Origin: Candidatus Micrarchaeia archaeon | Lineage (GTDB): Archaea > Micrarchaeota > Micrarchaeia > Anstonellales > J096 | Direction of reading: 5' to 3' | Assembly: GCA_041500405.1 (NCBI GenBank) | Contig: JBGQMB010000015.1 | Span: forward strand, 1-22,166 | DNA: 22,166 bases | Shown: positions 3,001 through 6,000 of the stretch, in pieces | Position numbering within the stretch: position 1 is the stretch's first letter | How the letters are laid out: every line of letters starts with the position of its first letter | Position numbers: made by a program

Positions 3001-6000
3001 GCGTGCACCCGTCCCCATAATACATCAGTATGCTTACGCTCACGTTCTTCCTGTCGGTCCCGTTCAGGACCTTTTCAACATCCTCGTTGCTGACCTGCTC
3101 TGCGCATCCGCAAATTAGAATAATAACAAACAAGACGGCCAATGCGCCCTTATTCATCCTTCTTCTTCCTCCTTGCCAGGGATGCCAGCGTTCCGCTTAT
3201 CCTTTTTATCTTTATCCTGTCCTTTGAGCACAACAGCGCCGCGGCAACCTCTCTCGCAGAGCTTCTTTCCACCCTTATGGTTTCAGCATTTCCGTCCTTC
3301 CTTATGGGCCTGAACATGATTCTTCCGAAGCCGGATGTGCCGAAAAAGCCGAGCAGGTACGCGCCTATGTCTGTTTTTCCTATATTTTCCAGCTCGATGT
3401 ACCTTGAATCAGGCCTATGCGACGGTTTGTATGTTCTCATTTTAGGTATATCCCCGTTTTCTGGTAATTGCCAATGAATATTGTTGCTATGGACCTTTCA
3501 ATCTCGGAGAACAGCCCGCCGCTTTGGCTCGAGGAGTATGACACTTCGCAGACGTCTGGCTTTTTGTCATATGTCATGTTTGCCAAATCCGCGGCCTTCC
3601 TTATCGCGTCGTCCTTGCTGCCAACCATGTCCGCAAGGCCGTAATTCACCGCCTGCTTTCCGGACACTATCCTGCCGTCTGTAAGGTTTGCCAGGTCAGC
3701 GCTCCTTATCCTGTTGCCCCTGCTTTGCTTAAGCACGTTTACAAAGTCCTGGTAAATCTCGTCTATTATGCCCTGCATTATTGCCGTTTCCTCGGCATCG
3801 GCGGTTTTGTACTCAGAAAGGAAGTCCTTGTGCTCAGCGCTCTTTATCGCGGATATGTTGACGCCCACTTTCTCCATAAGGCCCGTTATGTCCATCGTGA
3901 GCGATATCACGCCTATGCTTCCTGTTATGGTCTCCGGTTCAGTCACTATATAATCAGACCCCAGGGCAACATAATAGCCTCCGCTTGCCGCGGTCTCGTA
4001 AAGGTATGCCACGCTGGTCTTGTTGAGGTTTTTAACCGCCTCGTATATCTGGCGGGACGGTATGACGCTTCCGCCCGGGCTGTTTATTCTCACAACAACA
4101 GCCTTGACCTCATCCCTGCCGTCCAGTGCGGATATAGCGCTGGCAATCTCCTCTCCCCCCGGAGAGCCTGAGGAGAACAGCGTTGCAGGCGTTCCCTCGG
4201 ACGAAATTTCGCCGTCAATGTTCACGACGGCGACGCAGTCCCGGAATGACAGATTGGCAGAGCCGAAGAACATCAGTATGCCGATTGCCGCAAAAAGGCC
4301 TATCGCTATCACCGCGGCGCCGAAGAACACCAACTTCCGCTGCATGTTTTCCCCAACCGAAAACTGCAGTGCGCCATGCTTCCTATAGTCCTTCTGCCCT
4401 GTTCCGTCCATGTAATCCCGATGGTTTGGTATCGTTTTTAAACTTATTGCGGCCATTCATAAACTGCAGGATGATGACGTGAACAACCTCTGATCAATGA
4501 TGAGGCATGACAGCGACTGACTGCTTAAGTCCTTTTTCTTCGCAAAGAAAAAGCACTTGGGGAAAAAGAAGGCAATTTGGGGAAAGAAAAAGCGTTTTGG
4601 GCGAGGATTTCCCTGCTAAAAAAGCAACAGCTTTGCGTACAGTATCGCCACGATTTCACCGCCGAGAAGGAACGGCATGTACGGGGGCATGCCCTTCATC
4701 ACAATTATCCTTTTTATGCCGAGCTTCTTGAGCTTTTTCACTGCGTCCCTTGTCACAAGCGGCGAGGACTTGAAGATATCCTTTGCCCGCTCGTCCAGCA
4801 TCTTGGGGTTCACGACCTCTTCTTCTGCTTCATTGACATCCGCCTCTCCGCTCATTATGGCATCAAGCTCGTCCTTGTACGTATAATATAGGAATGACAT
4901 CAGGCCAAGGCTTATGACAACCGCAAGTATGGCCGGATTGCCTATTGGCGAGTTTACGTACAATGCCGCAAACAAAAGCGTCATTACGGCCATGCTCGCG
5001 CCCTCCAGGTTCATCTTCAGCTTTGCCCCCAGCTTGGCAAGCCTGTATACAAAATACAGGAAGTTGGTTATCGAGAACAGCATGCCGCTGAACAGCAGCA
5101 CGAACAGGATGAACGGGAAATTCAGGAAAACGCCTGCGGCAACAGGCGCTATCGGAAGCAGAAGCGCCATCGACGGTATTATGAACATCTCCGCCCCGCC
5201 CATGTAGCCCATCCTGTAGAACAGGTAGCATATTATCCCTAGCACGATGGCCTGCGCCCCCTCCATCATGATAAGGTCCTTTGGCGCGGGCAGGGCTATG
5301 AGCGCTGAAATAATGAGTACACAGTAAAGCACGCTGTCCGGTATGTTCTTGTTCTTGAAAAGGTCAAAATACGCGCAAACGGCAAGCATAATCAGCGATG
5401 CCACTATCCTGAGCTGCTCAAAAGGCATTTCCGCATATCCCAATATGAATGATATGTCAATCATGGCTTCACCGTGTCAAGGAACCTGTCCCTTATCCTG
5501 GTAACCACAAGACTATCGCACCTGATGTTCTTATGCGTTGCGGTGGAGAAGTTGGGTTCCGTCCTTCCGTTGTCCCCGTTGATAAGCTCCTTTATGTACA
5601 TGCCGGCCTCGCACCCTATTTCGGCATAAAACCCCTTGCCGTCCTTCCCGACTTCCAAGGAGTGGATTTTCCTTTTCCTTGTCAAATCCGCTCTCCTGTT
5701 TATCACGCGCTCGGGCGTCCTCTGGCTTATTGTTATGCCTTCCAGCTTCCTTATTGTTTCCAGGTCCTTTTCATCTATGCTTTCTTCGCTTGAAAAATAA
5801 GCCCTGTATCCCTTGTCAAAATGCGAGTCCGATATTAGGGCGACAAACGACGGATTCACATATCCAATCAGCTTCACTTTCACCCTTTTGTCGGAGTTGA
5901 TTTCGTTTTCCATATCTTTCAGGCCCGTGTCCCTTGCCTTCGCGCCCCTGATTTCCATCACGAACGGCCTGCCGGCAGTGTTGGTCACGTCAATGTCCTC

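Follow-up and report, generated by a model that had tools for sequence, protein, structure and literature searches.

A box C/D sRNA of a Micrarchaeia archaeon with predicted guides for 23S rRNA U2552 and U2504, and the small guide set to which it belongs

Introduction

Between two protein-coding genes on a 22,166-nt contig of a Candidatus Micrarchaeia archaeon (assembly GCA_041500405.1, JBGQMB010000015.1; C15 in our contig numbering, and here called the window) lies a stretch of 50 nt with the look of a box C/D RNA. We asked whether this locus encodes a genuine guide RNA, which nucleotides it would mark for ribose methylation by the D+5 mechanism of guide RNPs laid out in the introduction of Dennis 2015 (PMC4644070), and what kind of guide set it belongs to. 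A first-pass annotation of the genome had answered the last question by proposing that streamlining left a minimal set of four RNAs, which keeps mainly guides for the sites that bacteria modify with RlmB, RlmE and RsmI. The enzyme assignments behind that proposal are borne out by PMC11542601, according to which these E. coli enzymes act at G2251, U2552 and C1402, respectively.

Results

Both a reading of the sequence and a box scan of the genome place a four-box C/D sRNA at window positions 4471-4520 of the plus strand, with every box at consensus (Table 1). It runs from box C through a 12-nt guide, box D', a 3-nt spacer, box C' and a 13-nt guide to box D, which is the C, D', C', D order of archaeal box C/D sRNAs with their RUGAUGA and CUGA consensus. 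Each guide offers the complementarity to rRNA or tRNA of about 10-12 nt, with a Watson-Crick pair at D+5, that is expected of the class; for the U2504 half this is seen by way of the orthologues. Published archaeal box C/D sRNAs (Rfam sR9, RF01312; snoPyro_CD, RF00095; Dennis 2015, PMC4644070) are alike in having four boxes, two guides of 11-13 nt, a length of about 50 nt, the D+5 rule and the same partner proteins. The partners fibrillarin, Nop5 and L7Ae, which the first-pass annotation had reported, all score over their cut-offs in this genome, and fibrillarin does so in 40 of the 41 genomes (this one and 40 relatives from the Micrarchaeota-like order) that we compared.

Table 1. Features of the sRNA locus and its neighbours (window coordinates)
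Feature	Position	Strand	Remark
TATA-like box, likely the sRNA's own promoter	4435..4442	+	36 to 29 nt before box C
Terminal stem, 5' arm	4466..4469	+	pairs with 4521-4524 in both the MFE and the centroid structure
Box C	4471..4477	+	consensus match
D' guide	4478..4489	+	A4485 (D'+5) opposite 23S U2552 (own number U2573), A-loop
Box D'	4490..4493	+	consensus match
Box C'	4497..4503	+	consensus match
D guide	4504..4516	+	A4512 (D+5) opposite 23S U2504 (own number U2525); G4513 pairs with the lineage's C2503
Box D	4517..4520	+	consensus match
Terminal stem, 3' arm	4521..4524	+	pairs with 4466-4469, 4-bp stem
Pyrimidine/T tract, possible terminator	4530..4541	+	suggested by the sequence
SppA signal peptide peptidase, upstream divergent neighbour	3437..4456	-	TIGR00706 183 bits, cut-off 155; span of the longest ORF, the real start possibly lying further in
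Type IV leader peptidase family protein, downstream convergent neighbour	4616..5464	-	PF01478 27.6 bits, cut-off 26.5

A TATA-like box occupies the same upstream window at all six free-standing C/D loci of this genome, against 168 of 20,000 random positions, in a comparison for which motif and window were chosen after the loci had been inspected and the background was the whole genome rather than intergenic DNA. This differs from the 20% found in a study that PMC7994747 cites. The overall fold of the RNA is not better than that of shuffled sequences (z = -0.18). In an alignment of 40 members of its family the TGATGA of box C is invariant, most of these members having been gathered by a pattern that requires TGATGA. 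Two further features of the window were seen in passing: by eye, a short, purine-rich, imperfect direct repeat just 3' of the sRNA (4541-4602), and a plus-strand open frame (11330-22165) that extends for at least 3612 aa and runs off the contig end.

The C-D'-C' pattern matched once in the window and in none of 100 shuffles. Across the genome (916 kb, 86% complete) we found five four-box loci, and none in the reversed genome or in 20 fourth-order Markov genomes. Four of these are the loci that had been named as rRNA guides (C14:13272-13320, the window RNA at C15:4471-4520, C21:76-123 and C22:5521-5569 minus); their coordinates are right and their boxes contain no mismatch. The earlier count of five mismatch-free intergenic loci holds for these four but not for the fifth, on C40, which has one mismatch in C' and targets tRNA-Leu(CAA). 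This RNA (C40:1414-1462 minus) looks like a double guide for the intron-containing pre-tRNA-Leu(CAA) and also pairs with tRNA-Ser(CGA). Among the 41 genomes, 29 (this genome included) held 1-8 pattern matches, with no control match; a second box pattern gave matches in 27, with one control match. The window locus stays below the Rfam gathering score, its best archaeal C/D family being sR9 at 29.8 of 36 bits, and searches with sR9, sR2, sR14, sR1 and snoPyro_CD returned no match at threshold for C14, the window locus or the orthologues of C21 and C22. Judged by its sequence, the window locus is genuine and well conserved, and it belongs to a known class of RNA.

To which nucleotides do the guides point? 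For E. coli numbering we aligned the genome's own 23S (C11) and 16S (C9) rRNAs to E. coli rrnB. By this alignment all seven targets that the first-pass annotation had named (G2251, U2438, U2552, U2504, A1408, C1402 and C1533) lie at D+5, and all seven are in functional centres of the ribosome. The D' guide of the window RNA forms an 11-pair run with the U2552 region (nine Watson-Crick and two G-U pairs), a score reached by 11 of 300 shuffled guides; its D guide makes eight Watson-Crick pairs and one G-U pair around U2504, and 96 of 300 shuffles do as well. For the remaining guides the corresponding numbers are 0 (1408), 78 (2438), 129 (1402), 57 (C14 D') and 31 (1533) of 300, and for the two tRNA-Leu guides 2 and 10 of 300. 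Scored in this way against rRNAs and tRNAs, only the 1408, 2552 and two tRNA-Leu guides stand out singly. Because five of the seven rRNA pairings (2504, 2438, 1402, C14 D' and 1533) are no better alone than shuffled guides, the assignment of targets rests on the relatives.

Orthologues of these guides recur at least as often as had been counted before: among the 40 relatives we found the P-loop guide in 19, the A-loop guide in 19 (by pattern), and the 1408, 1533 and 1402 guides in 18, 15 and 16. From 30 genomes we took 102 sRNA rows (a subset of the pattern matches, with one duplicate row) together with 30 loci each of 23S and 16S rRNA, and ranked all positions of each genome's own rRNA for every guide, leaving out five rows that a likeness rule had put in the wrong family (two 2552, two 2251 and one 1408). 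U2552 came first for 13 of 14 orthologous guides, A1408 for 13 of 14 and C1533 for 13 of 13. G2251 was first for 14 of 18, U2504 for 10 of 14 (among the top two for 13) and U2438 for 12 of 17 (among the top two for all 17), while C1402 was first for 9 of 14 and ranked 3-14 for the other five. In reading these ranks it should be borne in mind that the kin are not independent, and that several genomes have one rRNA only, which eases ranking. In this genome alone, the C14 D' guide scores best at G1236 (9.4), with G2251 second (9.2); G1236 was rejected as its target, the orthologues favouring G2251.

Covariation is clearest at U2438. At position 4 of that duplex, 14 of the 17 orthologues have a G-C pair and three, from two families, an A-U pair; at position 10 there are nine G-C pairs, seven A-U pairs and one mismatch; position 8 is mismatched in 15. 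The G2251 duplex has A-U at position 8 in one genome (G038) and G-C in 16, and position 11 of the 1408 duplex is compensatory in 8 of 14 and mismatched in 6. Where the 2552 target has changed (G011 and G016) the guide has changed as well, but to G-U and U-U rather than to Watson-Crick pairs. The 1402 guide is the weakest of the set: every copy carries a mismatch, which in this genome adjoins the target base.

Some observations concern the target regions themselves. The 23S P loop of two relatives (L135 in G036 and L136 in G035) is split at G2251-G2252 by an insert, apparently an intron, and G036 retains its P-loop guide despite this. An altered anti-Shine-Dalgarno sequence was ruled out as the background to the variant 1533 guides of G004, G009 and G011, the 16S ends being standard. 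The P-loop/U2438 guide and the ksgA match are no more than about 100 nt apart in four genomes of one genus (G006:C30, G013:C21, G015:C3 and G017:C8).

The reading that we favour, with a probability of about 0.85, is that the window locus encodes a box C/D sRNA guiding ribose methylation of U2552 and U2504, within a small guide set. Alternatively, the C1402, U2504, U2438 and C1533 guides could act mainly as folding chaperones for distant rRNA segments, with partial methylation or none. That short or mismatched duplexes are conserved, as at U2438 position 8 and in all 1402 guides, would fit such a role, as would the distance in sequence between partners (2251/2438, 1402/1533), which is the pattern suggested for chaperone sRNAs in Dennis 2015 (PMC4644070); yet every true orthologue examined has a Watson-Crick pair at D+5, and methylation at these 16S sites has been measured in other archaea, with Am1408, Cm1402 and Am1534 reported for Nanoarchaeum equitans and Cm1533 for I. 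hospitalis (Seistrup 2017, PMC5389701). KsgA is also present in this genome (190 bits, cut-off 171) and over its cut-off in 35 of the 41, which speaks against the chaperone role too. We consider it unlikely that chaperoning is the main role of these guides; the two roles do not exclude each other.

Returning to the U2552+U2504 guide, we found its exact D'-half pattern in 61 GTDB genomes, most of which carry Micrarchaeota or Altiarchaeota in their titles. The A-loop guide is nearly always joined to one of the U2504 type in the Micrarchaeota records, whereas in those of Altiarchaeota its partner is a different guide, for the strand that directly follows the A-loop. A sequence-only model built from 40 members detects the family in 39 of the 41 genomes, where training members match by construction and 37 of the 39 matches were inspected; the model did not find it in G002 and G030, which are 77% and 75% complete. 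The members are conserved while their flanks diverge. Outside family f1 many of them have worn boxes or a long spacer between D' and C', so fixed patterns miss these A-loop guides, and the model recovers one in all 12 relatives that lack a match to the first pattern. In one relative the U2504 guide with its D box occurs twice, the additional copy (G005:C4:96601-96622, L277) lying downstream of the A-loop sRNA at a distance of about 110 nt.

The U2504 guide also reports on the rRNA that it would pair with. Its position 4 is G, matching a C at 2503 in this genome's peptidyl-transferase ring, which also has A at 2499. All 28 mapped 23S rRNAs of relatives have C2503, and so do all 34 matches to a sequence pattern run over 121 genomes of the phylum, the other 87 giving no match. 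In E. coli and in all seven archaea of Dennis 2015 (PMC4644070), position 2503 is A.

Are the four rRNA guide RNAs a complete set? Relaxed four-box scans and a half-unit scan of non-coding DNA (26 matches in the real genome, 2 in the reversed one) gave no credible further rRNA guide in this genome. The best extra candidate, C23:7798, was rejected since it sits at a gene junction and overlaps the start of the next ORF, and another since it runs into a tRNA gene. In relatives, which hold up to 8 sRNAs per genome in the pattern scan of the 41, the best sites of the further guides among the 102 sRNA rows are A1940, C1920, G1497 and C2606; guides for these four sites were looked for in this genome and not found.

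Two C/D-type RNAs of this genome escaped every four-box scan. One is a free-standing, 106-nt tRNA-Trp guide (C39:5831-5936 minus; C34, probably also 39) with a worn D' box, a 60-nt structured insertion and a TATA-like box. In many relatives the tRNA-Trp guide is compact and free-standing rather than intron-coded. The other is a module of guide, D' box, hairpin and C' box in the intron of elongator tRNA-Met (C7:15596-15729 minus, L234; also L233 and L235), whose guide pairs across the anticodon and the exon-intron junction with D+5 at the tRNA's own C34. This module is present in 3 of the 41 genomes, which are all three of its own genus, and its hairpin varies. Guide halves are also shuffled among relatives: the 1408 guide has a 1533 guide, a 1497 guide or yet another as its partner. 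In C21 the D' guide makes 7 pairs with the anti-Shine-Dalgarno region, out of register (U1532), while its counterpart in G004 is in register with C1533; C21 D' may be a decayed anti-Shine-Dalgarno guide whose job would now be done by C22. Of the proposed minimal set, what stands is that this assembly yielded no further rRNA guide. A fixed number is unsupported, because two C/D-type RNAs slipped past the four-box scans and relatives hold extra rRNA guides.

The second half of the proposal concerns the bacterial enzymes. In the search for RlmE, no FtsJ match above 29.6 bits was found in the 41 genomes, the best in this genome being an RsmB/F methyltransferase. RlmB and RsmI, sought in this genome only (86% complete), were not found, its sole SpoU match being Trm56. 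It is thus plausible that guides serve three of the four sites that carry a ribose methyl in E. coli. The claim that the set serves mainly such sites fails on the site list of PMC11542601, where just three of the seven targets appear; U2438, U2504, A1408 and C1533 lie outside it. A C2498 guide was not seen among the top matches of the 102 sRNAs, and within the order (41 genomes) we saw neither mutual exclusion of guide and RlmE nor loss of fibrillarin.

Did streamlining, then, leave a minimal four-RNA set devoted mainly to RlmB, RlmE and RsmI sites? Such a history would account for guides at three of the four E. coli sites, for the three enzymes not being found, and for relaxed scans of this genome having yielded nothing more. 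It is hard to square with the four non-bacterial targets and the missing C2498 guide, with relatives of similar size that hold more guides (A1940, G1497, C2606), and with non-canonical sRNAs such as C39 and the long-spacer and degenerate A-loop guides, which pattern scans miss. Nor does small genome size explain the number: 26 guides are known from the 490-kb genome of N. equitans and 7 from the mesophile Methanococcus maripaludis (Dennis 2015, PMC4644070), a comparison by which the small number here would be better explained by temperature than by streamlining. We regard the streamlining account as improbable.

Discussion

How would a guide RNA with targets at U2552 and U2504 work in this archaeon? 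We propose that an RNA of about 60 nt is transcribed independently from its own promoter, that L7Ae would bind its two box pairs and be joined by Nop5 and fibrillarin, and that the guides would pair with pre-23S rRNA and direct 2'-O-methylation at D+5 to U2552 in the A-loop and U2504 in the peptidyl-transferase ring. Three sister RNAs would cover G2251 and U2438, A1408, and C1402 and C1533. These four would form the best-conserved part of a set that numbers roughly 6-9 guides at the level of the family, a small repertoire like those of other mesophilic archaea; the guides at U2552, G2251 and C1402 would do the work of E. coli RlmE, RlmB and RsmI. For the joined targets (2552/2504, 2251/2438, 1402/1533) a further role in folding is possible, as suggested in PMC4644070. 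That the locus is a chance box-like sequence or a functionless relic, as its place below all Rfam gathering scores and its unremarkable fold might suggest, has a negligible probability given the empty reversed and Markov controls, its retention in 39 of 41 genomes next to diverging flanks, and covariation with rRNA.

A bolder proposal builds on the change at 2503. Micrarchaeota might hold an irreducible, ancient core of RNA-guided ribose methylation that takes over fully from RlmB, RlmE and RsmI and is partly shared with N. equitans, M. maripaludis and Altiarchaeota, with a lineage-wide U2552+U2504 guide that co-evolved with the A2503C/C2499A peptidyl-transferase centre, Um2504 lying beside the changed base, which is highly conserved elsewhere, and double guides that couple folding of A-loop, P-loop and ring late in 50S assembly. 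We offer this tentatively, with the odds against it.

The seven targets fall within published archaeal hot spots (PMC4644070, PMC7994747). Dennis 2015 (PMC4644070) predicts guides for U2552 in five of seven species, for G2251 in three and for A1408 in two. Using the alignment offset, we infer that its N. equitans sR14 (alignment position 2712) corresponds to U2438 and its Iho sR204 to U2504, and that Pca sR25 and Tte sR35, marked there as mismatched, correspond to C1402. The joining of U2552 with U2504 is absent from the five U2552 rows published there, whose partners are 2880, 2783, none, 2733 and 2852 in alignment numbers. RNA-guided Um2552 also has a counterpart in yeast snR52 (PMC12123411). 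RlmB, RlmE and RsmI share the target nucleotides G2251, U2552 and C1402 (PMC11542601) but are protein-only enzymes.

The closest comparison is N. equitans, itself a member of the DPANN, for which Randau 2012 (PMC3491384) describes sRNAs that include a C/D-like RNA in a tRNA-Met intron, a precedent for the intron module found here. Together with Dennis 2015 (PMC4644070) and Seistrup 2017 (PMC5389701), these published guides contradict the earlier statement that no DPANN report exists. Its sR10 is assigned to U2552 and its sR13 to A1408 and the anti-Shine-Dalgarno region, Seistrup 2017 tying sR13 to 1408 and 1534. The differences are as clear: N. equitans has 26 sRNAs against the 6-7 found here, other partner guides and another box order, and an anti-Shine-Dalgarno target at 1534 rather than 1533. 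Its Cm1402 is reported with no sRNA found for it, whereas the genome studied here has a candidate 1402 guide. N. equitans is also described as being without RsmA/KsgA, which is present in this lineage, so the guides here do not stand in for that enzyme in the way proposed for sR13. By eye, sR04 of N. equitans had looked like the P-loop guide and its sR15 like the 1402 guide; this likening was dropped, as it conflicts with the published targets.

If our reading is right, the phylum, for which the literature searched records no ribosome modification, gains a short list of them that can be tested, and the near-universal Um2552 would probably be RNA-guided here, where no RlmE was found. The reading also draws attention to the unusual peptidyl-transferase sequence, with C2503, that runs through the lineage. 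The literature searched held no report of Micrarchaeota guides or of C2503, though subscription papers and supplements beyond it may hold one; the U2552+U2504 family matching a lineage-wide A2503C appears undescribed, as do a covariation-based target for a published orphan guide and the order-wide lack of RlmE. What we describe extends known biology, since the RNA class, the clustering in functional centres, small mesophile repertoires and DPANN guides are all published.

The orphan in question is M. maripaludis sR106, from a similarly small repertoire (PMC4644070). Its D' guide has the same 12 letters as the D guide of C14, and Dennis 2015 gives no predicted target for it and lists that species' A-loop without a guide; on the strength of the covariation seen here, guides of the sR106 type are assigned to U2438. 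At the Altiarchaeota loci (L041, L044 and others) the guide for the strand downstream of the A-loop resembles the D guide of sR106, and the two target stretches overlap.
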